A stretch of DNA of 64,000 nucleotides. Origin: Petroclostridium sp. X23 (GTDB lineage Bacteria > Bacillota > Clostridia > SK-Y3). A program made the translations under genes and the position numbers. The notes below the pieces were generated by a model. That model saw only the letters and a list, made by a program, of their open reading frames with translations, made no database searches and had not been told where the DNA came from. Of the stretch, positions 2,597 through 35,463 are shown one piece after another. Within the stretch, counting starts at the first letter, position 1. Each line of letters starts with the position of its first letter. The DNA is taken from NCBI RefSeq assembly GCF_030013905.1, contig NZ_CP124862.1, forward strand, positions 1,241,051 to 1,305,050, written 5' to 3'.

Positions 2597-4729
2597 ATGT
2601 CAGATCAAGATATCAAGAATTCCTATAACAGAAGTGCTGAGAGAATGCGGGGAGACAATAAGACTTTCGCATCTGCCCTTACCAGAGATGATACAAATGA
2701 TCCGACACTTCATGAAGATCTTCATGAAACCGTTCATGTGAATTATGATGATATCGAAAAATCTCCTTCCATGGAGCAGGTTCATCAGTGGCAGAGAGAA
2801 CATATGCAAAAAGACGATCAGTCCAAGGAAGGATACCCTCTTAATGTTATCATCGACCCGGCAATGCGGGAAATGTACCAGGTTGTACATAATGCAGGCA
2901 TGACCAATGTTTTTGACCGTTTCAGCCAACAACAGCCTATTCAGTGCAAATTCTGTATTGAAGGGTTGTCCTGCCAGCTTTGCGCAAATGGTCCATGCCG
3001 TATAAGCTCCAAGGTTCCCAGAGGGACCTGTGGTGTAGACGCACATACCATGGTTGCCAGAAATTTTGTATATCGGCATGTTACCATCGGTACTTCTGCG
3101 AATATATTCCATTGCCATCAGGCTGCAAGAACATTAAAAGCAGCGGGTGAGCATCCGGAAAGCGGATTAAAAATAAGAGATCCGGAAAAATTGAAAAAAT
3201 ACGCAGATATGGCAGGGCTGGATGCGAATAAACCAATTAATCAACTGGCTGTAGAATTTGCCGACTGGGTAATGTCTGATATTCACAGTCCCTTCCATAT
3301 TCCATCAAAAACAGTGGAAGCTTTTGCTCCGGCAAAACGTAAGGAATTGTGGAGAAATTTAGGGCTATTTCCCGGCGGCGGCTACAGCGAGGTCGCTTAT
3401 GCACAAACCATGTGCATGACCAACTTTACTTCCGACCCTGTAGCATTTTTACTAACCAGTGTACGTCTTGGTATTGCTAACGAATATCAAGGATTATTCT
3501 TATTGGATATTATCCAGGAAATACTAATGGGTACGCAGGAAATCGCTATGAAAAAGCAAAATATGGGACTGTTGAAAGAAAATATGATCAATATTGTCAC
3601 CAACGGTCATATGCCTCTTCTTGCCCATGTTGCCATCGATTTGGCTTCTACCGATGAATGGCAGCAAAAAGCCAAAGCAGCAGGAGCCGAGGGCATTCAA
3701 ATATTGGGACACGTATGTGAAGGACAGCAATTGATCAACTATGAGGGAATGCATAATCAAAAGGGATATGGCGGCCAGGAAGGCGAATGGCTGTCGCAGG
3801 AATATCTGCTGGCAACCGGCGTCGTAGACCTGTTTATGTTTGATTATAACTGTACTGTTCCAACCATGCCGCTTTTCGCAAAACGTTTTGGCACAAAACT
3901 ATTGAGTACGCATCCTGTAATAAAACTTCAAGGTACTGAAACTTTGGACTTTGTTCCTGAAAAAATGAAAGAACAGGCCGTGAAGGCACTTGATAAAGCG
4001 ATTGAATCTTTTAATAAAAGAAAAGGTACTAGTGAGAAAAAATATATTCCGCCGCATACATCAGATTGTATGGTAGGTTTTAGTACCGAATCGGTTAAAA
4101 AGGCATTAGGTGGAAGCTTCAAGCCCCTCATTGAACAAATCGCAAACGGAAACATCAGAGGCATCGCTACCATTGTTGGCTGTACTACTGCCCGTTATGG
4201 TCAAGGCGGCAGCAATATCTTCCGCATTACTCAGGGACTAATCAAAAATAATATATTGGTGCTATCGGGCGGATGTACCTCTGCTGTTATGGAATACACG
4301 GGACTTACAAACCCTAAAGCTGCAGATGAAGCAGGCGAAGGATTAAAAGCGGTATGCAAGCAATTGGGCATTCCTCCTGTATTGACCTATGGCGCATGCG
4401 TAGATATAGGAAAAATGACGCATACGGCAAAAGAAATTGCCGATGAGCTAGATGTGGATACCAATATGCTTCCTCTTGTCATCGGAGCACCTGAATATCT
4501 GGAGCAGAAAGCAGTCGCTGACGCATGTACCGCTGTTGCTCTTGGATGGCTGGTGCATGTCGCACCCGTACCTTCCATTACCGGCAGTGATGTTGTGGTA
4601 AAAACACTTACCGAAACAACTGAAACACTTGGACTAGGAAAAGTAGTTGTAGAAATGGATGCTGAAAAAACCATTCAAATTTATGTGGACCATATTGAAA
4701 AGAAACGTAAGGAGTTAGGATTGAACTAG
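2597..4729 (+). CDS. cooS: Anaerobic Ni-dependent carbon-monoxide dehydrogenase catalytic subunit (CooS family), with ~100-aa acidic His-containing N-terminal extension
   Basis: CKFCIEGLSCQLCANGPCRI...GTCGVDAHTMVARNF matches the CooS N-terminal B/D-cluster Cys motif and the following GxCG motif. Length 710 aa. RBS AAAGGAGGA at 2581-2589. No cooC, cooF or acs genes are adjacent. Confidence 0.8.
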   Translation: MSDQDIKNSYNRSAERMRGDNKTFASALTRDDTNDPTLHEDLHETVHVNYDDIEKSPSMEQVHQWQREHMQKDDQSKEGYPLNVIIDPAMREMYQVVHNAGMTNVFDRFSQQQPIQCKFCIEGLSCQLCANGPCRISSKVPRGTCGVDAHTMVARNFVYRHVTIGTSANIFHCHQAARTLKAAGEHPESGLKIRDPEKLKKYADMAGLDANKPINQLAVEFADWVMSDIHSPFHIPSKTVEAFAPAKRKELWRNLGLFPGGGYSEVAYAQTMCMTNFTSDPVAFLLTSVRLGIANEYQGLFLLDIIQEILMGTQEIAMKKQNMGLLKENMINIVTNGHMPLLAHVAIDLASTDEWQQKAKAAGAEGIQILGHVCEGQQLINYEGMHNQKGYGGQEGEWLSQEYLLATGVVDLFMFDYNCTVPTMPLFAKRFGTKLLSTHPVIKLQGTETLDFVPEKMKEQAVKALDKAIESFNKRKGTSEKKYIPPHTSDCMVGFSTESVKKALGGSFKPLIEQIANGNIRGIATIVGCTTARYGQGGSNIFRITQGLIKNNILVLSGGCTSAVMEYTGLTNPKAADEAGEGLKAVCKQLGIPPVLTYGACVDIGKMTHTAKEIADELDVDTNMLPLVIGAPEYLEQKAVADACTAVALGWLVHVAPVPSITGSDVVVKTLTETTETLGLGKVVVEMDAEKTIQIYVDHIEKKRKELGLN

Positions 4730-4834
4730 ATAAATGATAATAGAGTAATGGAAAGTGGGGAGTTTTCTGTCTCCTCACTTATAGATGATCAAATTGAAAA
4801 TTATAAACTTACAACTTATATCTTGCGAGTTCTT

Positions 4835-4864
4835 GTAGGGGCGGACAGGGTCGTCCGCCCCTAC
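4835..4864. terminator. Perfect 12-bp-stem hairpin between the convergent cooS and cheR-like genes; likely a bidirectional terminator
   Basis: gtaggggcggac-agggtc-gtccgcccctac, followed by an A/T-rich tract. A second weaker hairpin (agtggggag...ctcctcact) lies at 4754-4778. Confidence 0.5.
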
Positions 4865-4922
4865 AAATATCCTTTTAATAGATCATGGCATTCAAATCCC
4901 AAGTTTTTATATAGCCAGTTGA

Positions 4923-6071
4923 TCATGGCTTTCTTTTAAATATTTTATCAATGTCTTTATATTTATCAAAATACATGTACCCGTTGTTATGGGTTATTCC
5001 TTCACTCTTACCTAATACTAAAAAACCATTTCGTTCCAAAGAATTCCAAAAAACTTCCAGCACCTTTTGCTGCAGACTATTATTGAAATAAATCAATACA
5101 TTTCTACATAGTATTAGATGAAATTCATTCAATATACCTTGCTGGCATAGACTGTGTTCAAAGAACAATATATTCTTTTTCAAGTCTTCCCTAATCATCA
5201 GATATTTTCCTGTCATTGTAAAATAGTTCATAAAACTTTTCATTCCTCCGGCTTTTCGATAATTGATAATGCAATTATCCACATCATCCATCGGATACAA
5301 CCCATTTTTCGCTTCCTTGATTACCAAAGGATTGATGTCAGTGGCATAAATTTGTGTTTTCCCCAACATTCCGAGCTCGTCCAGCATCATTGCCATTGAA
5401 TATGGCTCCTGCCCGCTAGAACATCCTGCACACCATATCTTTATATGCGTAAAAGAATTTAAATACGGAAGTACCTTTTCACTAATTCTTCTATAGCTTT
5501 CAGGGTCTCTAAAAAATTCTGTAGTATTGATTGAAAAGTCCAATAATAGCTGTCCAAATTGTTCCTCATTTTCCAGTATCAATCTACGAAAATCGACAAA
5601 TCTTCCAATGCTCTTATTTAACATAGACAGCTTGATTCTCCTGATGATACTTTCCATTTGGTATTGAGTATAGTCATACCCATATTTAAGGAATAGTTCA
5701 TTCAAAAAATCTTTGACATCTTCTTCTTTTATTTTTTCTTTGTACGCTGGTTTATAATCGGATGTCACCCCTGTATACACAGTCTTTTCTCTAATATATT
5801 GACATTGGATATCCAGCTTGCTTAGATATGAAAATAGAAACCTTTTAACTACAAATATCTTGATTTTCTTATATTTCTGCATTGACATTAATATATTGAC
5901 TATATTTTTACTCAGTATACCGGCATCTGAAAAAGTCACATGCAGTTCCATATCATCTTTTTGTTTAAGCACAAAAATGAAATACTGTTCATCTTCGATG
6001 TTATATAAATCTCCAGAAACAAAAACATGCTTTATTCTATTATTCTCACGATGAACATTAATATTTCCCAT
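4923..6071 (-). CDS. CheR-type protein-glutamate O-methyltransferase with an extra ~110-aa N-terminal domain of unknown function
   Basis: CheR_N-like helix region (EDVKDFLNELFLKYGYDYTQY). SAM-dependent methyltransferase core (TEFFRDPESY, IWCAGCSSGQEPYSMAM, YATDIN, LCRNVLIYF). Last gene of the histidine-kinase operon. Confidence 0.75.
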   Translation of the reverse strand: MGNINVHRENNRIKHVFVSGDLYNIEDEQYFIFVLKQKDDMELHVTFSDAGILSKNIVNILMSMQKYKKIKIFVVKRFLFSYLSKLDIQCQYIREKTVYTGVTSDYKPAYKEKIKEEDVKDFLNELFLKYGYDYTQYQMESIIRRIKLSMLNKSIGRFVDFRRLILENEEQFGQLLLDFSINTTEFFRDPESYRRISEKVLPYLNSFTHIKIWCAGCSSGQEPYSMAMMLDELGMLGKTQIYATDINPLVIKEAKNGLYPMDDVDNCIINYRKAGGMKSFMNYFTMTGKYLMIREDLKKNILFFEHSLCQQGILNEFHLILCRNVLIYFNNSLQQKVLEVFWNSLERNGFLVLGKSEGITHNNGYMYFDKYKDIDKIFKRKP

Positions 6072-6125
6072 AACCTATCTCATAAAACTCCATTTCTCAA
6101 ATCAATCTCAAGTCAAAAATCCGGT

Positions 6126-9100
6126 CTATTTATCTATCCAAGCCTTCACCAGACGAATTAACACATTATAATCTATGGGTTTGGAAATATAATCACTTGC
6201 TCCTACCGCAATGCATTTTTCCTTATCTCCTTTCAAGGTTTTTGCTGTTACTGCTATAATAGGAATATTCTTTAGTTTTTCATTATCCCGGATTGACTTT
6301 ATCATCTCATAACCGTCCATCACCGGCATCATAATATCCGTTAAAATCAAATCGATTTTATTTTCTTCAAGCTTTTTCAATGCAACTTTACCGTTTTCCG
6401 CCTCAATGATTTCAGCTCCATAATTCTCAAGTGTAGATGCCAACACAAATATATTTCTTGCATCATCATCAGCAATTAAAATCTTCTTTCCTTGTAAGTT
6501 TAAAGTATTTTTCTCATTTGCTGAAGAATGCACATACTGTCTATTCTTTTTTCTTACTTTATGCAAGAAAAGGGTTACTTCATCCAACAGCCGTTCATCC
6601 GAATTAGCTGTTTTAATAATAATGCTATCAGTATATTTGTTTAGTTGCTTTTCCATATCACCGGTTAATTCACTCGCGGTATAAATGATAATAGGAATTT
6701 TTATATTCTGCTCATCAATGAACTTACATATATCCATTCCATCTTCATCCCTTAACTGTAAATCCAATATTACGGCATCATATATTCTTTTAGAAAGTTC
6801 TGTTTTGGACTTCTCAACGCTATCCACACAAACGATTTGTATGTCTCCATTCCCAATTAATTCTTTCATCGCATTACGCTGAATCTCATCATCTTCAATA
6901 ATCAGTAAGTTTTTAGGACTCTTTTCCGAGAAAGCGATCATCTCAGAAATGATTCTGGCAACATCATTTGCATCAATAGGCTTCTGATAAAACCCTATGG
7001 CTCCCAATTTTTGCGCTTTGATATCTTTATTTTTCGCGGAAATGATATGTACAGGTATTCTTCTTAACTCTACATTATTTTTTATCTCTCTTAGCACTTC
7101 CATGCCGCTTATATCCGGAAGCATCAGATCAAGTAAAATTCCATCTATTTTATAATTCCGCACAAACTCTAATCCTATTTTTCCGGTAGGTGCAAGGAAT
7201 GTATTTAATCCCATGCCATCATTTATTTTTTTTATATATTTTGCAAAATCCGTATCGTCTTCAATAATGAGAATGTTCTTCTTTGATTGCCCTATACGCT
7301 CAATACCTTGTTCATCATCATTTAAACCTTCATGCGCTGCCGCAGTTTCTTCATATAGTATTTCCATCATATCATTAATGGCAATATTGCTTAAATGCAG
7401 TGAGAAAATGCTGCCTTTTCCCTCTTTAGTAACTACAGTAATTTTACCATCCATTATTGCTGCCAATTTGTTAGATATTGAAAGCCCTAAACCTGTTCCA
7501 CCATACTTTCTTGATATAGAACCATCCCCCTGCTTAAACTCTTTAAAGATGGTAAACAATTTTTCTTCCGGTATCCCTATACCTGTATCTGCAACTGAAA
7601 AAATGATCCCATTTTCTTTTTTCAGGTCCCGTGTCACTTGAAGTGTAACCGAACCTTCCTCAGTAAACTTGATTGCATTCGAAAGGAAATTACGTAAAAT
7701 CTGAGAAATTTTCTCTCGATCTCCTACTAATGCAGCATTTATCGAATCCTCCACCTCAAAATTTATGCCTTTTTCTTCTGCTGCCAAATGGAATAACTGC
7801 TGCATCTCTAATACCAATTCATTGGAATGGAACCTGGATATATTCAAATCCATTTTACCGGCTTCAATCTTTGAAAGGTCAAGAATGTCATTAATCAGAC
7901 GAAGAAGTTCCTGTCCGGCGTTGTATATTACATTGATTTTTTCCAATTCTTTTTCGCCTAATGCTTTATGCTCATTTCTAAACATTAGTTTAGATAGTAG
8001 TATGATAGAATTCAGTGGTGTACGCAGCTCATGAGACATATTGGCCAGAAATTCCGATTTGTATTTATTGGCTCGCTCTAATTCTATGGTACGATGATGC
8101 AGTTCCTCTTTAGACTGCTCCAATTCTTGATTCTTTTTACTAAGCATTCTGGACTGTTCTGCAAGCATTTGCTGTTGTTCTTCTAAATACGTGTTGGTTT
8201 GCTGCATTTCTTCACTCTGCTGTTGGAGCTGCTGCTGCTGTTCTTCTAACTCCGCATTTGTCTGTTGAAGCTCTAATGTTTGCTGATGAAGGAGTTTCTG
8301 TTGTTCTTCAAGCACTTCATTTGCTTTCTGCAGCTCTTGTGCACTCTCTTGTGCTTCTCTATGTGCTTGCTCGGTAATTTCAAACAGTTCTTTAATCTGC
8401 TGATTTTGAAGGGCAGAATATAGGTTGATTGATATTACTCTGCTTGCCTCTGCCATATATTCTTGTTTTAATTGGTCAAACACTTCAAAAGAAGACAGCT
8501 CAATCACACCATATAGTTCATCCTCATATACTAATGGAAATGCATAGATATTTAGGGGTGCTTCCTTGGAAGTTCCTGTTACAATCGTTGATTGGGACTT
8601 TTTAATATTTTTAAGATGGATAGGCCTTTTATCCACTGCAACTTGTCCGATAATTCCCTCCCCAAGCTTACAGCAGTTTAAAAGTTGATTTGCTTCATTA
8701 GAAGCAAATGTCGCTTGCAACTTTAAAACTTTCTCTTCAGGGTCATAAATATAAAAGACTCCATTCCCTGCCTCCATAATTCTTGAAAGAAGATTAATGG
8801 TTTTTTGGGCAAGGTCTTTTAAATCGAGGTCTCCCCAAAGCTCTTCATTAAGAAGATTTTGATTGTCCTTTATCCAGAACTGCTGTTTCAATTTTTTAAT
8901 TAATGTATTGTAATGTCCTGCCATATTAGTGATTTCATTTTCGCCCTCCAAGTCGGCTTCAGCTAATATGCCTGTATTGACACTGCTATACATTATTTTT
9001 CTCAGAAAACTAATTGGACTTATGATGCTGCGTATGATAAATACAAATATCCCCAAAGATATGAGGCAAAAAAAGATCATCCAAAAAATCTGCGTATTTT

Positions 9101-9668
9101 TTTGAAATTTCTGTACCTCGTTAGTTTGGTCTATAATTTCGCTGGTACGCTTAATAATTGTATCATCAATTTGCTCTAGTTTATTCTCAAGCTGCTGGAC
9201 AAACAATGTGTTTTTTACTTCAAAAGCCTCTTGCGCTTGTTGATGGTTTCCTTGTATAGCCAACATTATAATATCTTGTTGATTCTCTCTCCATTGTACG
9301 AGTATCTTGTCAATTTCTTTTCCTAATTGAGTTATTTCTTTCTCTTTGGTATTCCTTCGTACAATATCAAGTCGTCCATCCAATATCTGGTTTTGATAAG
9401 TCACTTCTTCTACCAGTCTCTGTACTTCGGACAGGTTCTCGGTTAATATGATTTCTCTCATTTTTGCTTCAGTTTTAAAAATCTGTACTCTCGCTTCAAT
9501 TGCAGCGTTGGATACCTTTAAATAATTATCGTGCATATTTTGCGCTAAACGCACCATTTGCTGCATTTGTAATATCTCAAATGCAGCAAACGCTATGAAC
9601 ATCATCATAAATATTGAAAATATGCCCAGTAATCTATTTTTAATACTTATATTATTTAAAAACCGCAT
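6126..9668 (-). CDS. Hybrid sensor histidine kinase: two TM helices with a periplasmic sensor, HAMP-like region, GAF domain, Gln/Glu-rich coiled coil, HisKA, HATPase_c and three receiver domains
   Basis: TM helices near residues 15-35 and 195-217. GAF-like segment (GEGIIGQVAVDKRPIHLKN). H-box ANMSHELRTPLNSI. G-boxes (DTGIGIPEE; GGTGLGLSI). Three REC domains (IIEDD...DLMLPD...K; IIEDD...DLQLRDEDG; IADDD...DIMMPVMDG...K). Confidence 0.85.
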   Translation of the reverse strand: MRFLNNISIKNRLLGIFSIFMMMFIAFAAFEILQMQQMVRLAQNMHDNYLKVSNAAIEARVQIFKTEAKMREIILTENLSEVQRLVEEVTYQNQILDGRLDIVRRNTKEKEITQLGKEIDKILVQWRENQQDIIMLAIQGNHQQAQEAFEVKNTLFVQQLENKLEQIDDTIIKRTSEIIDQTNEVQKFQKNTQIFWMIFFCLISLGIFVFIIRSIISPISFLRKIMYSSVNTGILAEADLEGENEITNMAGHYNTLIKKLKQQFWIKDNQNLLNEELWGDLDLKDLAQKTINLLSRIMEAGNGVFYIYDPEEKVLKLQATFASNEANQLLNCCKLGEGIIGQVAVDKRPIHLKNIKKSQSTIVTGTSKEAPLNIYAFPLVYEDELYGVIELSSFEVFDQLKQEYMAEASRVISINLYSALQNQQIKELFEITEQAHREAQESAQELQKANEVLEEQQKLLHQQTLELQQTNAELEEQQQQLQQQSEEMQQTNTYLEEQQQMLAEQSRMLSKKNQELEQSKEELHHRTIELERANKYKSEFLANMSHELRTPLNSIILLSKLMFRNEHKALGEKELEKINVIYNAGQELLRLINDILDLSKIEAGKMDLNISRFHSNELVLEMQQLFHLAAEEKGINFEVEDSINAALVGDREKISQILRNFLSNAIKFTEEGSVTLQVTRDLKKENGIIFSVADTGIGIPEEKLFTIFKEFKQGDGSISRKYGGTGLGLSISNKLAAIMDGKITVVTKEGKGSIFSLHLSNIAINDMMEILYEETAAAHEGLNDDEQGIERIGQSKKNILIIEDDTDFAKYIKKINDGMGLNTFLAPTGKIGLEFVRNYKIDGILLDLMLPDISGMEVLREIKNNVELRRIPVHIISAKNKDIKAQKLGAIGFYQKPIDANDVARIISEMIAFSEKSPKNLLIIEDDEIQRNAMKELIGNGDIQIVCVDSVEKSKTELSKRIYDAVILDLQLRDEDGMDICKFIDEQNIKIPIIIYTASELTGDMEKQLNKYTDSIIIKTANSDERLLDEVTLFLHKVRKKNRQYVHSSANEKNTLNLQGKKILIADDDARNIFVLASTLENYGAEIIEAENGKVALKKLEENKIDLILTDIMMPVMDGYEMIKSIRDNEKLKNIPIIAVTAKTLKGDKEKCIAVGASDYISKPIDYNVLIRLVKAWIDK
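8160..8345 (-). repeat. Coding heptad repeat in the hybrid histidine-kinase coiled coil: three L-E-E-Q-Q-x-x-L units (a Glu-Gln pair motif like MCP methylation sites)
   Basis: The DNA units ctgttgttcttc / ctgctgctgttcttc recur. Translation: EVLEEQQKLLHQQT ... AELEEQQQQLQQQS ... TYLEEQQQMLAEQS. Confidence 0.6.
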
Positions 9669-9712
9669 TTCTTTCCCCTCTAATCATGGTAAATTCCATC
9701 CCTGCTATTCAT

Positions 9713-11002
9713 CTACAAACAAATATCAGATAACTCCACCTGTACTTTTTTAAGGATATCCGGTTCTGCATTGTATACTAAATAACTATCCACATTCTTT
9801 TGATGTGTTTGCAAGTTATCCGGCAGCTCAACTATAAATTCCGTACCTTTTTTTTCGCTTGTCTTCACAAAAACCTGTCCATCATGCATCTCTACAAGAG
9901 ATTTGACCAGCCATAACCCTATTCCCGCTCCTTCATAATTTCTGGTAAATAAATGGTCTGTCTGTTTGAATTTTTCAAAAATAGCGCTTAGATTATCTTC
10001 TCTTATACAGGGCCCGTCATTCTTTACCGATATATGAACTGCTCCATCCAGCTCTTGTATATTAACTTCTATCGTTCCGCCATCTAAAGTAACTTTTATC
10101 GCATTAGATAATAAATTTAAAATAATCCGTTCAATGGCACTGATATCACAATTAACCATTTTTTGCGGTACATCTGAACGAAAAAAAACCATAATACCTT
10201 TTTTCTCTATAAATTCTTTTACGGATAATGTAAGTGTCTCAATCACCTGTACGATGTTGCACACAGTCCTGTTCAAAGTATAATGGCCGACATCGATATG
10301 AGTAATATCAAGCAAATTATTAATAAGACGCTGAAGCCTATAGCAGTTCTGCATCTGTACTTTTATTCTTTTTAAATATTTTTCTTTATGAGGAGTATCA
10401 TCGTTTTGGATATATATATTCATTAACTGAGTAGTACTTAACAATACATTTAGAGGTGTTCTAAGCTCATGCGATAAATTAGCTAGAAACATACTTTTTG
10501 CCTCATTCGCCGCTTCAGCTTCTTCTTTGGCTTTTCGTAACTCTTCGGTTTGCTGACGTACTTTCTTTTCCAGAAGAAGATTCATATTCCGTTCTTTTTC
10601 GATAAGTTTAAGATATACATTTATTCTATTGATTAATTGGTATTCATCTATGGGTTTAGTAAGGTAATCTACTGCACCAATTTCAAATCCTCTTCTTTTA
10701 AATTCTTCACTTATGTAAGATGCAGTTAAAAAAACAATAGGGATATCTCTTGTCTTCTTTCTTCTTTTTAAGATTGCCGCCAGTTCAAATCCATCCATTT
10801 CATCCATATGTACATCCAATATAATTAAATCTACAGAGTGTTTAAGAAGTACCTTTAGTGCCTTATCTCCACTATTTGCTTCAATAACATCCGCATTAAT
10901 ATATTGTTCGATTAATATCCGTAACGAGAATAAATTATTGTTATTATCATCAACAATTAATATGGTATAAGATGAAGTCTTCTCCATGATCCACTCCTCC
11001 AT
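9713..11002 (-). CDS. Response-regulator-histidine-kinase fusion: N-terminal REC, coiled coil, HisKA, HATPase_c; soluble
   Basis: REC (ILIVDDN...DLIILDVHMDEMDG...K). H-box LANLSHELRTPLN. ATPase G-boxes (NDGPCI; GAGIGLWLV). The likely true start is the second ATG at 10987, which sits behind GGAGGAG. Confidence 0.8.
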   Translation of the reverse strand: MEEWIMEKTSSYTILIVDDNNNNLFSLRILIEQYINADVIEANSGDKALKVLLKHSVDLIILDVHMDEMDGFELAAILKRRKKTRDIPIVFLTASYISEEFKRRGFEIGAVDYLTKPIDEYQLINRINVYLKLIEKERNMNLLLEKKVRQQTEELRKAKEEAEAANEAKSMFLANLSHELRTPLNVLLSTTQLMNIYIQNDDTPHKEKYLKRIKVQMQNCYRLQRLINNLLDITHIDVGHYTLNRTVCNIVQVIETLTLSVKEFIEKKGIMVFFRSDVPQKMVNCDISAIERIILNLLSNAIKVTLDGGTIEVNIQELDGAVHISVKNDGPCIREDNLSAIFEKFKQTDHLFTRNYEGAGIGLWLVKSLVEMHDGQVFVKTSEKKGTEFIVELPDNLQTHQKNVDSYLVYNAEPDILKKVQVELSDICL

Positions 11003-11185
11003 TACAATTATATGTTTTCGACAAATTTCAGCTATTAATCGATGTTATTTTCAAAAATTTATCTTATATACTATTTTATCCTAAAATCCCCAATTGTCAA
11101 ACAATTATCGCTCTTTTTTTTATTAATTTCTACTAAATTGTGTATAATTATTACATAATATGAAAGTCTCATATTGCTCTATTGA

Positions 11186-11389
11186 TCAAAACTTACTTTG
11201 ATGATCCCGTTTTTTTGATCTACACTTGCCATAGTAAATACCGGGGTTGTCTTTTGCCATCCGATTAATGACAGCATCCACATTATAAGTTTTTATATCA
11301 TAATTTACACCCTTTACTGTCAAGGCGAAATCTTTACTATTTAATGCGTTTTTTACCGCATTATAAAAATCACTATAGTTTTTTACCAT
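11186..11389 (-). CDS. Hypothetical small protein. Translationally coupled to the upstream ORF, or its frameshifted C-terminus.
   Basis: ATGA start/stop overlap at 11389-11391. No recognisable motif. Confidence 0.25.
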   Translation of the reverse strand: MVKNYSDFYNAVKNALNSKDFALTVKGVNYDIKTYNVDAVINRMAKDNPGIYYGKCRSKKRDHQSKF

Positions 11390-11676
11390 CAGATTGTTTT
11401 GGATAGTATTTTATTCATATCAGCGTCAGTTAATGCCACTACCTCATTTTTCTTGCCAAACATTTTAACTAAAAGGGTAATACCTGTTTCTCTATTGACA
11501 GCAGTTCCCAAATCCGACTCAAACGATTGTACAGATATTCCATCATAGAGTCCAAGCTGATTTAATAATCTTGCTTCATGCATGTACACAAAACCTTCAG
11601 CAGCCATCGCATTTCCCGTAATCACTAATGTAATTGCTGCTATAAAAATAATAGTTGCATTCCTTAATATCTTCAT
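11389..11676 (-). CDS. Hypothetical secreted protein with a signal peptide and an SLH/Cu-amine-oxidase-N-like segment
   Basis: N-terminal signal peptide (IIFIAAITLVITGNAMA). The stop overlaps the next ORF's start in ATGA. Confidence 0.35.
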   Translation of the reverse strand: MKILRNATIIFIAAITLVITGNAMAAEGFVYMHEARLLNQLGLYDGISVQSFESDLGTAVNRETGITLLVKMFGKKNEVVALTDADMNKILSKTI

Positions 11677-14150: not shown

Positions 14151-15728
14151 ATGTCAAATATCAAAGATATTATCATCATTGGCGCCGGTCCCGCAGGACT
14201 GACTGCGGCTTATGAGCTATTGAAAAATTCTAAAGAATACCGTGTCACCATTCTTGAAGATACCGATGAAATCGGCGGAATATCACGTACGGTGAATTAT
14301 AAAGGGAATCGTATGGATATAGGCGGACATCGATTTTTTTCAAAAAGCGAGAAAATAATGAATTGGTGGACAAGTCTTCTTCCTATACAAGGAGCTGCTT
14401 CCAAAGATGATTTCATGTTAAACCGTGGGAAAAACTTAAGTGTAGGCGGTCCTGACCCGGAAGTACAGGATAGAGTCATGCTGCTCAGGGATAGAGTATC
14501 ACGCATATATTATTTACGTAAATTTTATGAGTATCCCATCAGCCTAAAACTACAGACTTTTTTTAATATGGGCATCATTAAAACTGCCAGAGCTGGCTGC
14601 AGTTACATGTATTCCTCTGTATTCAAACGCAAGGAGCAATCTCTTGAAGACTTTATGGTAAATCGTTTTGGTTCGGCACTCTACCGTATGTTCTTTGAGA
14701 ATTATACGCAAAAAGTTTGGGGAATCCATCCCTCAAAAATTTCTGCCGAATGGGGAGCCCAGAGAATAAAAGGCTTATCACTGTGCAAAATTCTTATTGA
14801 TTTATTTAAAAAGCCATTTCGCATAAAAAGCGATGTAAAACAAAAAGAGGTAGAAACATCTCTCATAGAACAATTTATTTATCCAAAATACGGCCCAGGC
14901 CAATTGTGGGAAACTGTAGCCGATGAAATCAAACGTATGGGCGGAGAAATTCTTACTGATTGCAGAGTCATTGATATTAATATGAATGATACTATAGTTA
15001 CTTCTGTAAGCTATATACACAATAACCGCAAATATTCCATGGATTGCGATACCCTGCTCTCCTCTATGCCTATCCGTGATTTAATAGGAGGAATGTCCGG
15101 CGCTCAAATTCCTGAAAACGTGACTAAGATAGCCGCAGGTCTTCCTTATAGGGATTTTATAACTGTAGGTTTGCTTGTGAATAGATTGAACTTAAAAAAT
15201 GAAACCAAGATTAAAACCATCGGTAATATCGTCCCTGACTGCTGGATCTATATACAAGAGCCGGATGTCAAAGTAGGCCGGCTGCAAATATTCAATAACT
15301 GGTCACCGTACATGGTTAACGACTTTGAAAATAAAGTTTGGATCGGCTTGGAATACTTCTGCAACGAAGGCGATGAACTTTGGAACACTGATGACACCGA
15401 CTTTATATCCTTTGCTGCTGAAGAGCTCCAAAAAATCGGAATGATCAATAAGTCGGATATTATTGATGCGGTACGTGTCAAAGTCAAAAAAGCATATCCT
15501 GCTTATTTCGGCACCTATGAAGACTTCGACAAAGTGCGGGAGTTTCTGGATGGTTTCGATAATCTCTACTGCATAGGCCGCAACGGGCAGCATAGATACA
15601 ACAATATGGACCATTCCATGCTTACTGCCATGGAAGCTGTAGACAATATCCTTAACCATAGAAAAGATAAAACAAATATTTGGTCGGTCAATACAGAAGA
15701 ACAATACCATGAGAAAAAAACGGTATAA
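14151..15728 (+). CDS. FAD/NAD(P)-binding oxidoreductase (amine-oxidase/protoporphyrinogen-oxidase-like fold)
   Basis: N-terminal Rossmann dinucleotide motif [16 protein letters not shown]...ILE...IGGISRT. 525 aa. Confidence 0.65.
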
Positions 15729-15750
15729 TACTAAAAATGGAGTGGGCAGG

Positions 15751-15885
15751 TACGAGGCTACTGAAAAAGTGCTTAATTGTTCAGAAATCACACAAGGGGA
15801 CAGGGCCGCAGTCCGGCCAAAAAACAGGCCTGACAGCAGACCAGTCCCCTAGTCTGATTTCTTCTGTTCAAAAAATTGCGACTTT
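15751..15885 (+). repeat. Degenerate copy A of a MITE-like intergenic repeat family
   Basis: tacgaggctactGAAAAAGTGCTTAATTG..., then an internal GGGGAC...GTCCCC stem-loop. Homologous to copies at 17264-17414, 23413-23556 (inverted) and 57934-57993. Confidence 0.5.
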
Positions 15886-15940
15886 ATCAGTGGCCTCGGA
15901 CGGTACTCCCATTCCATCTTTTGTCTACATCATTATTCTA

Positions 15941-17068
15941 TCATTTTGTGGGTTTTTCCTGTTTGGTCCTGTATTCAGCAATCAACAAGTCAACAACTCT
16001 TCCGTAACTCATCTCACCGTCTTTTTGATTGTTAGCTTTTAAATACAAATCATTGGCTTTACTGAAATTTTGTTCAACAGGCCCCTCATATAATGCATTA
16101 TATTCAGAAATTGCCCTAAGATCTCTTTTGATGCCTTCACCATAGTCCACCCTTAAAGTATTGTAAGCTTCTCTATCGTTTTCATACAAAGCATTCATTG
16201 AATGAATAAGTGCCAGAAACACACCCGAATACCGAAAATCATCATCCGGGTGCATACTGCATGTAAAATACGCTATATAATTTGCTTCATCTTCTCTTGC
16301 AAATCCACGCTGATGTGCCATTTCATGACATACCGTAGTCGGAAGCAATGATGCCGGTGTGGTGGTGTTGACATTCGCCTCTGATGTATAAAAGCTATAT
16401 ACTCCCGCTATTCCGGTATAAGCCATAAGCTGTGACAGGAATATTCCCTTCGGAACACCATACTGTCCACCCAGTTCTGCATGTACTTGACTTGCGCGGT
16501 CATATCCCTTATGGGCCCTGTTTAAAACATCTCTAAGTCCTTTTGGAGAACCCATTACACCCTTTGTATCCTCATGTACCCTGCTGCGCAGGTCATTCGC
16601 CCGTGTGATGAGGTCTTCACATAATGCTGCCAATTCCTTAACGGATGCAGGTCTAACGTCCAATTCAAATATCTGAGACACCATCATACGGTTATAGTTT
16701 AATCCCCACATGATAATAAATGAAAAATAAATTACACCGGCTAACGCCAGGCCATTTATGATCCCTTTTTTAAATATCTCCCACCGATTTTCTGTCCCTT
16801 TTACAAATCTTACGCATAAAACAACCAATCTCCATATAATAAAAAGAACGAATGCTATTAGCATCAACTCCGCTACCGAAAACGGAAAAACTCCGGTTAC
16901 TGTGCTGATAGTTTGGGAAAACCATTTATAACTTATATTAGAATATATTCGCTCAGTAATAGTGCTATTTAAAGATGAAGTATAATTTAATAACATTCCT
17001 ATGGGTAAAAGCAAAATCAATAAGCACTTCATCAGCAAGCTGGTTTTTTTCATTCTCCCACTCCTCAT
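15941..17068 (-). CDS. DUF3810-family membrane protein with an HExxH motif (putative zinc metallopeptidase)
   Basis: N-terminal TM helices and the HEMAHQRGF motif. Confidence 0.6.
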   Translation of the reverse strand: MRSGRMKKTSLLMKCLLILLLPIGMLLNYTSSLNSTITERIYSNISYKWFSQTISTVTGVFPFSVAELMLIAFVLFIIWRLVVLCVRFVKGTENRWEIFKKGIINGLALAGVIYFSFIIMWGLNYNRMMVSQIFELDVRPASVKELAALCEDLITRANDLRSRVHEDTKGVMGSPKGLRDVLNRAHKGYDRASQVHAELGGQYGVPKGIFLSQLMAYTGIAGVYSFYTSEANVNTTTPASLLPTTVCHEMAHQRGFAREDEANYIAYFTCSMHPDDDFRYSGVFLALIHSMNALYENDREAYNTLRVDYGEGIKRDLRAISEYNALYEGPVEQNFSKANDLYLKANNQKDGEMSYGRVVDLLIAEYRTKQEKPTK

Positions 17069-17263
17069 ATGATTCTATTATATTTAGAACAGTTTCGTCA
17101 ATCTTTTTCCATTCATTGATTACATTAAAATCATTCTCCCTATAGGGTGGTTTTTGCTTTACAGTCTTTATGGTAACCTTTCTTCACAAAAAAGGACTAT
17201 GCTCCTACCTTAATTCCTTTACTGTCTGAGCATAATCCTTCAGCATACCATATTACATAAGGC

Positions 17264-17414
17264 TATAGGAGGTTGTGAAAAAGTGCTTGATTGATCAGTC
17301 GCAAAGCATGGGGACGGACCTGCAGCTTCCCTAAAGAGCAAGCGCAGCAGTAGGTCCGTCCCCATGCTTCACTCCTTCTGCGTGCTAAATTTGATTTTTT
17401 CACAACCTCCTATA
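17264..17414 (+). repeat. Copy B (most complete) of the MITE-like repeat. 19-bp terminal inverted repeats flank a 22-bp GC-rich stem-loop.
   Basis: Left end TATAGGAGGTTGTGAAAAAGtgcttgattg. Right end aaatttgaTTTTTTCACAACCTCCTATA. Internal ggggacggacc...ggtccgtcccc. Confidence 0.65.
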
Positions 17415-18945
17415 TTTCTTTATTAATTTCTATATCATTATTGTCTACATTAACATCTTCTGTCATTCTGCTTTCCACATTATTATTGTCCGAATTGATC
17501 TCTTCTATGATTTTACTTTTTGCAATTGCCCTGGTATTGCTATTTGGGGTTTCATTTGTATTCTTTTTGTTGGACAGCAAATCTACTAGATTAACTCCGG
17601 TCAGCGCCTCCATTGTTTCAGGCAGCTGTGAAATAATATCAGTAATATACCCTGTGACTTTTGAAGCACCTTTTCCCTTCCCTTGACCATTTCCATTATC
17701 AACAATAACAATCTTTTCAGTTTTAGATAGTGGTTCGGATATGGCTCTCGAAATTTCAGGAAGCTTTTCTACAATCATTTGTGCCATCGCCGCTTCACCA
17801 TATTGCTTGAATGCTTCTGCTTTTAATTTCATAGCCTCCGCCTCTGCCTTACCTTTTTCTCTGATGATATCTACTTCAGCCATTCCTTCCGCCTTTTTAG
17901 CTTCGGCTTTTGCTCTACCTTCCAGTTTAATTGCTTCCGCTCTCGCTTCAGCATCCTGAATTTCTTTATACTTGATAGCTTCCGCCTGCTTTTCAGTCAT
18001 ATATTTATCTGCATCAGCCTGCTTTTTAATAGTCGCTTCAAGTTCTTTTTCTTTTCTAACCGCTTCTCTTTCAGCAATATCGATTTCCCTGTTTCTTCTT
18101 AAAAGTTCAACCTCCAGCTCGGTTTCGGTTACTTCTTTTGTAACCTTGTTTTCTTCGATCTTATATGCCAAATCAGCTTGTGCTTTAGCTGTTTGCTGTT
18201 CTTTTTGATACCCTTGGACTTTTAATTCCTTTTCTTTTGTAGCTTCGGCTATTTGCGTCTCCGCGCGCAGTTTTGCCTCTGCGCCCAATCTGTCGGCTTC
18301 TGCCGTTTTTATCGTTGTCTCCTTCCTTGCTTCAGCTTCAGCGATTAGAGCATCTCTCTTTACTTCTGCAATTCTTTTCTTCCCAAGGGCTTCCAAATAT
18401 CCGTTTATATCGCTTATGTCCCTGATAGTAAGCGCTTTTATTTCCAGACCCATTTCCGCAAGATCAACAGCTGCAACTTCCTGAACTGCTGATGCAAATT
18501 TTTCTCTATCCTTATAAATATCTTCCACCGTCATTTTGGAAACGATTTCTCTCAGTTTACCTTCCAAAACATCTTTTGACGTATCTTTGATAACCTCAAT
18601 GGTCCCTTGTTCATGTCCCGTATTAAATTGTTCTACAGCCGCAAGGATACTTTCAGTATCCGACTTGACCTTAATAACTGCTACACCATCAGCAATAATG
18701 GCAACCCCTTGCTCCGTCAGCGCACCATCAATACGTACTTCGATTTTCATATTTTCTAAGGAAATAATGTCCGTTTTTTCCAACAACGGTATCACAAATC
18801 CGCCACCGCCGGAAATAACTCTCTTTTTAAGGCCGGTAACAACTAAAGCCTTATCTTGTGAGACTTTTCTCCACATAGACAGAATCCCTAATAACAAAAG
18901 AACGATTACACCGATGATGCTGATAGGAATAATAAATAATTCCAC
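17410..18945 (-). CDS. floT: Flotillin-family SPFH protein
   Basis: N-terminal TM helix, SPFH domain, long Ala/Glu/Lys-rich coiled coil (EA repeats). 511 aa. Partnered with the upstream NfeD gene, as in the B. subtilis yuaF-floT pair. Confidence 0.75.
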   Translation of the reverse strand: MELFIIPISIIGVIVLLLLGILSMWRKVSQDKALVVTGLKKRVISGGGGFVIPLLEKTDIISLENMKIEVRIDGALTEQGVAIIADGVAVIKVKSDTESILAAVEQFNTGHEQGTIEVIKDTSKDVLEGKLREIVSKMTVEDIYKDREKFASAVQEVAAVDLAEMGLEIKALTIRDISDINGYLEALGKKRIAEVKRDALIAEAEARKETTIKTAEADRLGAEAKLRAETQIAEATKEKELKVQGYQKEQQTAKAQADLAYKIEENKVTKEVTETELEVELLRRNREIDIAEREAVRKEKELEATIKKQADADKYMTEKQAEAIKYKEIQDAEARAEAIKLEGRAKAEAKKAEGMAEVDIIREKGKAEAEAMKLKAEAFKQYGEAAMAQMIVEKLPEISRAISEPLSKTEKIVIVDNGNGQGKGKGASKVTGYITDIISQLPETMEALTGVNLVDLLSNKKNTNETPNSNTRAIAKSKIIEEINSDNNNVESRMTEDVNVDNNDIEINKEI

Positions 18946-19505
18946 TATACCCTCTCCTTTACTTTAATGTCATTTAACTGCGCTACATAAAAGGTATTCT
19001 TCTCTATTTTATGAATGATCACTTCCTTTCCTGCCCCTATATACCTATTATCAATATCTCTACAGGGAGCAGTATACTTGTTGCCATTAAACATATATGA
19101 AATAGTACCAAAGCCTTTCTCCATAATAGGAGATATGACTTTCGCCGGTGTACCGATCAGATACCGGTGTGAAGCTATCTTTTGATTATCCTGTATTTTA
19201 TATAAAGGTACGAGAACCAACCTGAAAAGTATGAACGCAATGATGAAACCCGAAAAAACCGCAGCAATAAATATGACATATGAACTCCATCCCCGGTAAC
19301 TTCCAAGCCATCCCACGCCGCCAAATACGGTAATAAAAGACATAATTACAATAGGCTTTAGTGGCGAAATATTTAACCATGGCACATCTACGCCCGGGTC
19401 AATGTCACCGCCCAAATCAAAAGAATCCAGAAAACTGCCCAGTATGGAAGATAATAGAGTATACGATACTCCTATTATAAAAAGAATTTGATAAGCCCGG
19501 AGCAT
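18945..19505 (-). CDS. NfeD-family membrane protein (YuaF-like flotillin partner)
   Basis: Three TM helices plus a C-terminal OB-fold-like soluble domain. Overlaps the flotillin start by 1 nt. Confidence 0.65.
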   Translation of the reverse strand: MLRAYQILFIIGVSYTLLSSILGSFLDSFDLGGDIDPGVDVPWLNISPLKPIVIMSFITVFGGVGWLGSYRGWSSYVIFIAAVFSGFIIAFILFRLVLVPLYKIQDNQKIASHRYLIGTPAKVISPIMEKGFGTISYMFNGNKYTAPCRDIDNRYIGAGKEVIIHKIEKNTFYVAQLNDIKVKERV

Positions 19506-19680
19506 TTGACCCCTCCTTCGTATTCCGGTTTTTGACCGTCATTGCCATTAATAGAGACTAATTTAGTACTGCATTATTAAGACTGAAAAAACAAAAAAAG
19601 GTTCCATCTTTGTGATAAAAAATTTGAGAAAAATATCCGGATGTTTCGCGCTTATTCTTATTCCGGCAGATAAGTAGGTA

Positions 19681-19711
19681 TAAAAAACGAATGGGAGTGA
19701 TATCCCATTCG
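19681..19711 (-). terminator. Intrinsic terminator after the paaK-like gene
   Basis: Minus strand: aacgaatggga-tatcac-tcccattcgtt followed by TTTTTAT. Confidence 0.6.
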
Positions 19712-19712
19712 T

Positions 19713-20951
19713 TCATCCTACATCACGATAATCTAAAATTCTTTTTGTTTTCTTTTCACTTCTGGGCAGCCCACCAACTTCTAACGCTTCCACATGGATA
19801 CTGAGTCCGATTAGCTTTTTAAAGTGTTCTGCAACCATTGTCTCAATATCAATCTTGTTACACAAATGACTCATTTCAACTCTTAGTGTCATCACATCTT
19901 TTCCGTCAATATGTGAGACAACAACCTGGTATTCGCTGCTGACGCCTTCGATGCTTCTCAACAATCCATCAATTTGTCCCGGATAAATATTTACACCTTT
20001 TACCTTCACCATGTCATCGGTTCTGCCTATAATCCTATCCAACCGCGGATACGGCCTGCCGCATGCGCATTGGCCCGGAATAAGTCTCGTCAAATCTCTG
20101 GTTCTGTAACGCAGCAGGGGTGCTCCTTCTTTGGTGAGGGTAGTGATTACCAGTTCTCCATATTCCCCTTCGGGAAGTACGTTACCGGTAGCCGGGTCAA
20201 TGATTTCAAAATATAAATGATCATCCCAATAATGCATTCCCGAATGTTCATCACAGTCAATTGCAATCCCCGGCCCATAAATCTCGGTCAAACCATAGAT
20301 ATCATAGGTTTGTATTCCCAACTCATCTTCAATCCTTTTACGCATTTTTTCTCCCCAGCGTTCCGAACCGAATATGCCTTTTTTTAGACGAATATGCTGT
20401 TTGATTTCCCGTTTGCACACTTCTTCAGCGATGAGCAATCCGTAAGAGGAAGTGCCTATCAATACCGTGCTTTTTAAATCTACCATCATCTGAAGCTGCT
20501 TTTCGGTATTGCCGGGCCCCATAGGTACCGCCATTGCGCCAAGTTTTTCTACACCGGCCTGAAATCCTATACCTGCCGTCCACAGACCGTATCCGGGCGT
20601 AATCTGCACTCGGTCTGTTTTGGTGACCCCTGCGGTTTCCATACATCGCCCCATAAGCTCAGCCCATACATCTACATCCGACTTTGTATATGGGATAATA
20701 ACAGGCTTGCCTGTCGTTCCTGAAGATGAGTGTATTCTTACCACATCCTCATCAGGTACCGCTTGCAGACCTAACGGATATGCATCTCTAAGTTCTTCTT
20801 TGGTCGTAAAGGGTAAATACTGGATATCCTCCATGGACTGAACTTTATTGATATCGATGCCGTACTCTTCAAATTTTCTGCGGTAAAACGGACTGTTTTC
20901 CGATAATCTTTTTAATAATGTTTTGAACTGATTAAACTGTTCTCGTCTCAT
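19713..20951 (-). CDS. paaK: Phenylacetate-CoA ligase family (aryl-acetate:CoA ligase, PaaK-like)
   Basis: AMP-binding core (SSGTTGKP; YGLTE). 412 aa. Immediately downstream of iorAB. Confidence 0.75.
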   Translation of the reverse strand: MRREQFNQFKTLLKRLSENSPFYRRKFEEYGIDINKVQSMEDIQYLPFTTKEELRDAYPLGLQAVPDEDVVRIHSSSGTTGKPVIIPYTKSDVDVWAELMGRCMETAGVTKTDRVQITPGYGLWTAGIGFQAGVEKLGAMAVPMGPGNTEKQLQMMVDLKSTVLIGTSSYGLLIAEEVCKREIKQHIRLKKGIFGSERWGEKMRKRIEDELGIQTYDIYGLTEIYGPGIAIDCDEHSGMHYWDDHLYFEIIDPATGNVLPEGEYGELVITTLTKEGAPLLRYRTRDLTRLIPGQCACGRPYPRLDRIIGRTDDMVKVKGVNIYPGQIDGLLRSIEGVSSEYQVVVSHIDGKDVMTLRVEMSHLCNKIDIETMVAEHFKKLIGLSIHVEALEVGGLPRSEKKTKRILDYRDVG

Positions 20952-30181: not shown

Positions 30182-31372
30182 TTACTCCGAAGCCTTAAAG
30201 TTATATACCGGCTTAATAATATCCAGTATTTCAACAGTATCGTTAATATTATTTATAATTTCCTCCATTGGTTTGTATGCCATAGGGGCCTCATCTACAG
30301 TGGAACGGTCCACACACGTTGTGTAAATCCCTTCCATAGATTTTTTGTATTCTTCCATGGAGATTCTTTCTTTTGCAGCGCCACGGCTCATCAGCCTTCC
30401 GGCTCCATGGGGAGCCGAATAGTTCCAGTCGGCGTTTCCTTTTCCTATGCAGATCAGCGCACCATCCCTCATGTTCATGGGAATAAGTACTTTTTGCCCC
30501 TCATAAACAGCAATGGCTCCTTTGCGAAGGATTTTCGCCTGAACTTCGATATAGTTATGGATAGTGGTAAAACGTTCCGTCTCATCTACCTTCATATGAC
30601 CCAAAATCTCATCTACAATGGCCAGTCTGTTGAGAACGGCATACTGTTGCACGATCTCCATATCATGAAGATAATCATCGAATAGATCACCCTCCACATA
30701 AGCCAATTGTTTGGGTACCTTCATATAATTAAGTTTCTTTAGTTCATCTTGTATTTCATTTTTTCTTCCTTGTTCCTTCAAATCCTCAATAAGTTTCTGC
30801 TTCTCTTTTGATTTTTTGTTCAAGCTGTTGAAAGCAGTCTTCTGATAATATTCCGCCACTTGCTTTCCCAGATTTCTGCTCCCTGAGTGAACAACCAGCC
30901 AGTACTTGCCCTCTTGGTCTACATCCACTTCTATAAAGTGATTCCCTCCGCCCAAGGTTCCTACACTTAGCTGTGCTCTCCTGAAATTAACATGCTTTAA
31001 ACATCTTAGGTCCTCAAGTCCGGCTTTTTTCTCATACTTATGAATCTTAGACCGTATATCGAAACCTGATGGTACATTTTTTCTAATCACACTATCCAGC
31101 GCTCCCAAATCCAGTTTGCGGACTTTTAATCTTACTGCTTCCATTCCACACCCAATATCCACCCCCACCAGATTGGGCACAATCTTGTCTGAAATGGTCA
31201 TTGTCGTTCCAATCGTGCATCCTGCTCCGGCATGCGTATCGGGCATGATTCTTATCGTACTGTCTTTCACAAATTCTTGATTGCATAGCTCTATGATTTG
31301 TGAGACAGTCTGTTCTTCTACATGATCTATGTATACTTTTGCAGTATTATATTTCCCTTTTACTTCTATCAT
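30182..31372 (-). CDS. rtcB: RNA-splicing ligase RtcB (3'-phosphate/5'-OH RNA ligase)
   Basis: PDTHAGAGCTIG, GNHFIE, PHGAGR metal/GTP-binding motifs. 396 aa. Confidence 0.8.
   Translation of the reverse strand: MIEVKGKYNTAKVYIDHVEEQTVSQIIELCNQEFVKDSTIRIMPDTHAGAGCTIGTTMTISDKIVPNLVGVDIGCGMEAVRLKVRKLDLGALDSVIRKNVPSGFDIRSKIHKYEKKAGLEDLRCLKHVNFRRAQLSVGTLGGGNHFIEVDVDQEGKYWLVVHSGSRNLGKQVAEYYQKTAFNSLNKKSKEKQKLIEDLKEQGRKNEIQDELKKLNYMKVPKQLAYVEGDLFDDYLHDMEIVQQYAVLNRLAIVDEILGHMKVDETERFTTIHNYIEVQAKILRKGAIAVYEGQKVLIPMNMRDGALICIGKGNADWNYSAPHGAGRLMSRGAAKERISMEEYKKSMEGIYTTCVDRSTVDEAPMAYKPMEEIINNINDTVEILDIIKPVYNFKASE

Positions 31373-33155: not shown

Positions 33156-35463
<2,308 letters not shown>

Follow-up and report, generated by a model that had tools for sequence, protein, structure and literature searches.

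Organisation of the locus

We analysed a 64-kb window (64,000 nucleotides of contig NZ_CP124862.1) of the Petroclostridium sp. X23 genome, in which two histidine kinase genes and a gene for a CheR-type methyltransferase form an operon, and we consider the coiled coil of the larger kinase as a candidate substrate of this enzyme. Positions are those of the window, and residue numbers are those of each protein. All three genes are on the minus strand, with 44 nt between the first and the second and 54 nt between the second and the third. The first gene (9713-11002) encodes a soluble kinase of 429 aa, here called the REC-kinase, with Response_reg (aa 14-128), HisKA (aa 168-237) and HATPase_c (aa 286-395) domains. 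It is followed by the gene of a 1180-aa membrane hybrid kinase (6126-9668) and by a gene (4923-6071) for a 382-aa STAS-CheR_N-CheR protein of the protein-glutamate O-methyltransferase family. By sequence, the CheR protein has 100% identity to one of Petroclostridium sp. X23. The open reading frame (ORF) calls and the Pfam annotation agree with an earlier reading of the same DNA (the original prediction), which had described three closely spaced co-directional genes for a REC-HisKA-HATPase protein, a sensor-GAF kinase with three receivers and a CheR protein.

The hybrid kinase begins with an extracytoplasmic, CHASE3-like sensor of the 4HB_MCP_1 family (aa 6-181, 9126-9653, Pfam E-value 3.3e-10), which is flanked by two hydrophobic segments (approximately aa 13-33 and 194-216). 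A GAF domain (GAF_2, aa 281-414, 8427-8828, E-value 3.5e-10) is followed by a Glu/Gln-rich coiled coil recognised by its register and composition (aa 443-540, 8049-8342), which runs continuously into the HisKA helix. The kinase core (7392-8060) consists of HisKA (aa 537-604) and HATPase_c (aa 649-759), with His546 in the H-box SHELRTP as phospho-acceptor, and three receivers occupy approximately aa 797-1174 (6147-7280). No Hpt domain was found in this protein by Pfam. The canonical acidic pocket, Asp, Thr/Ser and Lys are present in all four receivers of the operon, and in the REC-kinase receiver they read DD / D / T / K. The first 95 residues of the CheR protein (5787-6071) form a STAS-fold domain, which is joined to the rest by a disordered linker (aa 96-109).

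The original prediction had stressed that no methyl-accepting chemotaxis protein (MCP), CheA or CheW is encoded nearby, and the searches agree with it within the ORFs scanned. A six-frame search of the window with a peptide of the MCP signalling hairpin as query gave no match, while MCP-like ORFs in other loci were detected by the same search and served as its positive control. A six-frame search of the window with a CheB methylesterase seed was also without a match. Pfam scans of 49 window ORFs found no MCPsignal, CheW, CheA/Hpt, CheB or CheD, although a few ORFs shorter than about 170 aa fell outside the scan and a small CheW-sized gene is formally possible. The scanned ORFs have metabolic, transport and regulatory content, and there was no GGDEF regulator such as CfcR among them.

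Recurrence of the module and its known relatives

It has long been noticed that genes for CheR and CheB also occur outside chemotaxis clusters. When aligned CheR homologues were used to scan species-representative genomes, 80 loci were recovered; those from Clostridia include 27 in which CheR has the N-terminal extension (full-length relatives), and these 27 are the Clostridia loci compared here. The hybrid-kinase orthologue directly precedes the CheR gene in all 27 of these loci, one of which is a 2.5-kb contig with only part of the module. The REC-kinase was also found wherever the Clostridia contigs were long enough, except in locus L033 (Clostridiaceae), which has a CheB-containing CheR and a second kinase downstream. 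Most of the remaining loci, which span Campylobacterota, Bacteroidota, Cyanobacteria, Pseudomonadota, Desulfobacterota, Planctomycetota and others, encode a GAF-coiled coil-HisKA-HATPase-REC×3 kinase, then CheR in one of the two arrangements given below, and then a REC-(PAS)-kinase(-REC). The REC-kinase is therefore found upstream of the hybrid kinase in Clostridia and downstream of CheR in other phyla.

Recurrence of the module in 27 of 27 Clostridia loci means that the arrangement is not a matter of chance. The genes flanking it vary from locus to locus, and because the linkage persists across phyla with variable flanks, CheR is a partner of the two kinases and no member of a chemotaxis cluster. 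A neighbouring che cluster as the source of the CheR gene was rejected: none was found in the window, and the flanks differ across the 27 loci. Homology extends to distant relatives. Between the window and a locus from a Pseudomonadales metagenome-assembled genome (MAG; L076), the hybrid kinases have 32% identity over 961 aa (E-value 2e-163) in an alignment that runs from the HAMP-like region to the last receiver with large gaps only in the coiled coil, and the CheR proteins have 36% identity (E-value 1e-69).

The CheR genes outside Clostridia are of two kinds: either a protein of about 550 aa, which by Pfam contains the N-domain, CheB_methylest, CheR_N and CheR, or a CheR of about 280 aa with a separate gene of about 190 aa, which is a stand-alone CheB methylesterase without a receiver. 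One such gene (L051:10909-11484) was shown by Pfam to lack an N-terminal receiver, and other post-CheR genes of about 190-200 aa (for example in L057, L061, L065, L067, L068 and L070) matched the CheB seed. Without a receiver, a stand-alone CheB would escape phosphorylation control, unlike the CheB of chemotaxis. CheB is present in L033 and in most non-Clostridia loci, and searches of the window (all six frames) and of Clostridia loci L001-L025 and L053 gave no CheB_methylest match. The window protein does not have the CheB domain of about 185 aa seen between STAS and CheR elsewhere, so on sequence comparison this domain is lost in the Clostridial lineage concerned.

A cluster of this type has already been described in Pseudomonas. 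In cfcABCDE of P. putida, cfcA encodes the hybrid kinase and cfcB/cfcC are CheR/CheB (PMC4951495). P. alkylphenolica BmsA and P. brassicacearum 3082 are CHASE3/GAF kinases with three receivers that are encoded beside CheR, CheB and a hybrid kinase (PMC8175716), and the "che4/che5" clusters of P. syringae are described similarly (PMC5088630). The cfcABCDE/BmsA cluster has been linked to biofilm and cyclic di-GMP (c-di-GMP) (PMC4951495, PMC8175716). The window module shares with these systems (CfcA, which is PP_3761; BmsA; P. brassicacearum 3082-3079) a CHASE3/4HB sensor, GAF, HisKA/HATPase and three receivers (PMC4951495, PMC8175716, PMC6849547), as well as an adjacent CheR-family gene and a second receiver-bearing kinase without MCP, CheA or CheW; sequence homology was established through L076, which has this layout, and P. 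putida CfcA was compared by description. It differs in that it has neither a CheB gene nor a CheB domain, its CheR carries an N-terminal STAS domain, its REC-kinase lies upstream instead of downstream and has no C-terminal receiver, and its host is a Gram-positive anaerobe. The module is thus very probably a chemotaxis-independent two-kinase cassette of the cfc/Bms kind. The architecture that the original prediction had drawn is real, but it is not novel, since the same cluster type was known from Pseudomonas (PMC4951495, PMC8175716).

The tri-domain STAS-CheB-CheR proteins of Campylobacterota, Bacteroidota, Cyanobacteria and others have homologous STAS, CheR_N and CheR domains and equivalent neighbouring kinases with a Glu/Gln-rich repeat linker. 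The window protein differs from them by having no CheB, which among Clostridia only L033 keeps. We found no description of STAS-CheB-CheR proteins in the literature searched. New here are the CheB-less STAS-CheR form and a 21-residue-periodic, Glu/Gln-rich linker with conserved Glu pairs, and not the cluster type itself.

Several variants of the module were seen among the recovered loci. In many Clostridium species a gene of the sugar-binding type (Peripla_BP_4) lies between the REC-kinase and the hybrid kinase, for example L003:5617-6573, with equivalents of about 320 aa in L007, L008, L009, L013-L016, L019 and L053; it is absent from the window operon. This arrangement suggests that in the Clostridium loci bearing it, the 4HB sensor reads a ligand-loaded binding protein. 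Clostridium polyendosporum (L003) has two whole modules in tandem (REC-kinase, binding protein, hybrid kinase and CheR, at 4252-11101 and 14364-20492), and the second CheR ORF (20265-20492) has only 75 aa, stops well before the end of the locus at 21098 and looks truncated. In a Sericytochromatia MAG (L034, 7436-10801), the STAS-CheB-CheR gene is broken within its CheB part, with STAS and the first 45 or so CheB residues at 7436-7906 and the remainder at 9593-10801; a reverse-strand ORF of 352 aa (8081-9139) between the two pieces may be a mobile-element insertion. Fusions of CheR to a kinase were also looked for as "Rosetta-stone" evidence. An apparent case, a 1388-aa ORF in L063, was rejected as an ORF-calling artefact in high-GC DNA, and a database search with a coiled-coil peptide gave 18 candidates, none of them useful. 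Proteins annotated as "histidine kinase with CheB and CheR activity" are fusions that probably have similar [ST]NEEL repeats.

The CheR enzyme and the kinase coiled coil

The CheR protein of the window has a CheR_N helical domain and a methyltransferase domain, dependent on S-adenosylmethionine (SAM), with a β-subdomain. The CheR domain (aa 182-366) was matched with an E-value of 3e-45, and the CheR_N match (aa 118-168) was weak and below the Pfam threshold. The catalytic and SAM-binding motifs align with those of B. subtilis CheR, and FFR, WCAGCSxGxEPYS, ATDIN and CRNVxIY are invariant in 76 CheR homologues with about 50% overall identity. A CheR domain without SAM-binding residues, which would have told against the original prediction, is thus not what the alignment contains; judged from these motifs, the active site is intact and the enzyme looks active. 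This matters for the possibility that STAS-CheR is a relic, or a non-catalytic scaffold left after the loss of CheB, and that the three genes are an ordinary multi-kinase phosphorelay without methylation. Deletion of the CheB domain in all Clostridia loci but L033 and the low CheR_N score would fit such a relic, but the catalytic and SAM-binding motifs do not vary among the 76 homologues in spite of an overall identity of only about 50%, and the CheR gene is kept in every locus. This pattern points to purifying selection on an active enzyme, and we consider a relic highly improbable.

The 112 N-terminal residues of the CheR protein matched no Pfam family, STAS included, at E-values up to 0.1. 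This region, which the original prediction had left as an unassigned domain of about 110 aa, has the STAS fold (β-β-α-β-α-β-α), and an iterated hidden Markov model search found the homologous domain at the start of the STAS-CheB-CheR fusions of other phyla. It shares its fold with the STAS partner-switching proteins SpoIIAA, RsbV and HsbA and differs from them in being fused to an enzyme and in having no Pfam STAS match. The STAS loop is D49-A50-G51 (D-A-G/N in homologues), where A50 is kept in at least 90% of the proteins and D49 is variable; the equivalence of this site to Ser58 of SpoIIAA was judged by eye. With a conserved Ala at the position like that of the SpoIIAA phospho-Ser, if this residue equivalence is right, phosphorylation of the domain seems unlikely. 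In P. putida, the free STAS protein HsbA is reported to be recruited by CfcA (bioRxiv 10.1101/2024.11.25.625174), which is a precedent for a STAS domain meeting this kinase family, and by analogy the STAS domain of the window protein probably docks CheR on the kinase.

Two other features of CheR bear on its partner. R144 and R145, in a helix of the N-domain, are invariant in the 76 homologues; the equivalent basic helix of Salmonella CheR contacts the acidic methylation helices of the receptor. In comparison with B. subtilis CheR, the β-subdomain has an insertion of 8 residues with the signature xYxxAGGxxxFxxY[FY], which is common to Clostridia, Pseudomonadales and Bacteroides. In enteric CheR the β-subdomain binds the C-terminal pentapeptide of the receptor, so the conserved insertion means that this CheR clade may dock differently, on another partner.

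These features also bear on a reading in which CheR is the output of the module: its activity or location would be set by the kinases (for example by binding of STAS to an ATPase domain), and it would methylate MCPs encoded elsewhere, thus coupling the signal to chemotaxis adaptation. In favour of this reading, both the N-terminal helical domain and the β-subdomain of a genuine CheR are present, motility and MCPs are common among Clostridia, and in one Clostridia MAG an MCP-like gene (L001:11556-13337, hairpin match with E-value 2e-16) lies immediately downstream of STAS-CheR. However, L001 is the only clear case of MCP linkage, which occurs in 1 of the 27 Clostridia loci, or in 2 if a weak match in L053 is counted, and the clade-specific insertion in the β-subdomain suggests a docking partner other than MCPs. 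The CheR-kinase linkage persists in Bacteroides and Cytophagaceae, which to our knowledge usually have no MCP/CheA systems. For the P. putida counterpart, a chemotaxis role is reported to have been ruled out (PMC4951495, citing Garcia-Fontana 2013). We therefore consider CheR as an output towards chemotaxis unlikely.

The hybrid kinase itself offers a candidate substrate. Between GAF and His546 there is a helix of about 105 residues, with about 15 heptads in perfect register. In each heptad, position 4 is Leu (or Met). Position 1 is Asn in every third heptad, which gives a period of 21 residues, and Gln, Ser or Thr in the remaining ones, so one of the two core positions is always polar. Glu and Gln make up 44% of this coiled coil compared with 13% of the rest of the kinase. 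In the 100 residues before the H-box, Glu+Gln averaged 39% in CheR-adjacent kinases and 17% in other kinases, all of which came from the same loci and are not an unbiased sample. The number of repeats varies between several orthologues by 14 or 21 residues, that is, by whole heptads. A DNA-level tandem repeat behind the 21-residue repeats was rejected, as Tandem Repeats Finder gave only a short 12-nt array and the repeat is at the protein level.

Conservation was then measured as the mean majority-residue frequency in the 27 Clostridia orthologues, which are about 50% identical overall. The highest value in the kinase, 0.82, was that of the core repeats (aa 450-505), compared with 0.785 for HisKA, 0.74 for HATPase, 0.67 for GAF and 0.50 for the sensor. 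Among the receivers, REC3 (0.80) was by far the most conserved, with 0.44 for REC1 and 0.42 for REC2. Within the coiled coil, conservation peaks at predicted solvent-facing positions: E475/E476 and E496/E497 are fixed in 26-27 of the 27 orthologues, E454/E455, E466 and E486/E487 in 21-25, and the Gln residues flanking the Glu pairs are equally fixed. Fixed exposed residues are unexpected for a passive linker and point to a surface read by an enzyme, which makes E454/455, E466, E475/476, E486/487 and E496/497 the candidate methyl-acceptors. In addition, proteobacterial orthologues carry EELRAS and EELRATNEELEE, which match EExxA[ST], a motif that we take to be the classical CheR site.

In canonical chemotaxis adaptation, the methyltransferase has the same fold and motifs as the window CheR, and the substrate proposed here resembles that of chemotaxis in being an extended acidic coiled coil that precedes a histidine kinase and repeats its Glu pairs along one face of the helix. 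The window module differs in having no MCPsignal domain, CheA, CheW or receiver-regulated CheB, and its kinase is of the HisKA type, is covalently joined to the coiled coil and leaves the MCP consensus unmatched. No MCPsignal domain or hairpin was found in the hybrid kinase by Pfam or by the hairpin search. The Wsp system (WspA-F and WspR) also has a CheR homologue in non-motility signalling, and the Pseudomonas relative of the window module is likewise connected with biofilm and c-di-GMP, but Wsp relies on an MCP (WspA), on CheW proteins and on a kinase of the CheA type, and the searches of the window found no such protein.

Another pathway protein, such as the REC-kinase, a receiver or an unlinked response regulator, might be methylated instead. 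The REC-kinase is linked to CheR as tightly as the hybrid kinase is, and it has a short acidic helix (EELRKAKEEAEAAN) ahead of its H-box. However, its linker is short and not Glu/Gln-rich (approximately 17-19% compared with 39%), REC1 and REC2 are poorly conserved, and a repeated array of Glu pairs is found nowhere else in the module, so we consider a substrate of this kind distinctly unlikely.

Several observations weigh against methylation of the kinase coiled coil, beginning with the restricted set of comparison kinases mentioned above. The MCP consensus [ASTG][ASTG]xx[EQ][EQ]xx[ASTG][ASTG] has no full or strict half match in the window coiled coil, and a strict MCP methylation consensus was accordingly rejected there, while the relaxed pattern EExx[AQSTG][ST] has two matches. 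Loss of CheB was not accompanied by a shift between Glu and Gln in the kinases compared (E 0.19 and Q 0.19 without CheB; E 0.21 and Q 0.17 with CheB), and keeping CheR after losing CheB is awkward for reversible adaptation. The conservation of the coiled coil could instead reflect a mechanical constraint on signal transmission. The docking of STAS on the kinase is argued from analogy only, L001 does have its MCP-like gene directly downstream of CheR, and the literature searched contained no experimental report of kinase methylation by any CheR of this cluster type. The original prediction that the kinase itself is the target thus gains comparative support from the conserved Glu/Gln-rich coiled coil and its exposed Glu pairs but none from the MCP methylation consensus, and on these sequence features we put the chance that the coiled coil is the CheR substrate at slightly less than even.

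Proposed mechanism and other features of the window

In the mechanism that we propose, a signal would pass from the extracytoplasmic four-helix bundle through GAF and the parallel, polar-core coiled coil of about 15 heptads to His546, and phosphoryl groups would then move to the conserved REC3, to the REC-kinase and to an output regulator encoded elsewhere. CheR, tethered to the kinase by STAS, would methylate the near-invariant exposed Glu-Glu pairs of the coiled coil, and neutralisation of charge on a marginally stable helix pair would reset the gain or set-point of the kinase, as in chemoreceptors. With no CheB domain left in this lineage, methyl groups would have to be removed by another esterase or by spontaneous hydrolysis, or be lost as the protein turns over. 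Taken as a whole, the explanation of the locus as a CheB-less cfc-type cassette whose CheR acts on the kinase coiled coil is, in our view, evenly poised. The wider proposal is more tentative: CheR, together with CheB in other phyla, would act on the coiled coil of HisKA-type kinases with STAS as a tether, and the Clostridial form without CheB would be a "memory" that works one way and resets slowly.

In the literature searched, there was no statement of what a CheR/CheB pair of the cfc type methylates, beyond Pseudomonas genetics. What the present analysis offers is a concrete and testable hypothesis on a long-open question, and the system itself is not of a new kind. Some five conserved Glu-Glu pairs within one defined segment of the kinase are named as candidate sites, a STAS domain on a CheR enzyme is documented across several phyla, and the CheB-less lineage is a natural case of methylation uncoupled from demethylation. 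If the hypothesis is true, chemoreceptor arrays would not be alone in adapting by covalent modification, and methylation-based adaptation would exist in a widespread class of two-component systems without chemoreceptor, CheA or CheW. If it is refuted, the module would be another multi-kinase phosphorelay with an accessory enzyme.

The boundaries of the operon were examined by simple scans. The best promoter-like match in the operon region by consensus scan was TTGACA-16 nt-TAAAAT (11073-11100, minus strand, 11 of 12 matches), approximately 70 nt upstream of the REC-kinase gene. Between the convergent CheR and prismane/CODH-family genes, there is a GC-rich hairpin of 14 bp (4833-4866), which is a likely candidate for a bidirectional terminator. 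Operon boundaries drawn from these two elements are plausible. No riboswitch or other RNA element was matched in the operon region by Rfam at E-values up to 0.1. The 1-kb gap upstream of the operon contains an ORF of 95 aa (11389-11676) with a signal-peptide-like N-terminus; it has no Pfam match and no conserved counterpart at the equivalent spot of related loci.

Elsewhere in the window, an ORF of 243 aa (46643-47374) matches only both ends of AAA_15/AAA_21/SMC_N-type ATPases and may be a truncated or unusually short ATPase. Two SPFH/Band_7 (flotillin-like) genes are found within 15 kb (17410-18945 and 31439-32572); the second adjoins an RtcB RNA ligase gene (30182-31372), and a gene for a WCX-domain protein (34153-35457) is near. 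From 15.9 kb to the end of the window, the minus strand carries almost all genes, and GC skew is negative in almost all 2-kb bins of the 64-kb window. Together, skew and gene strand indicate that the window belongs to a single replichore, in which the minus strand is the leading one.

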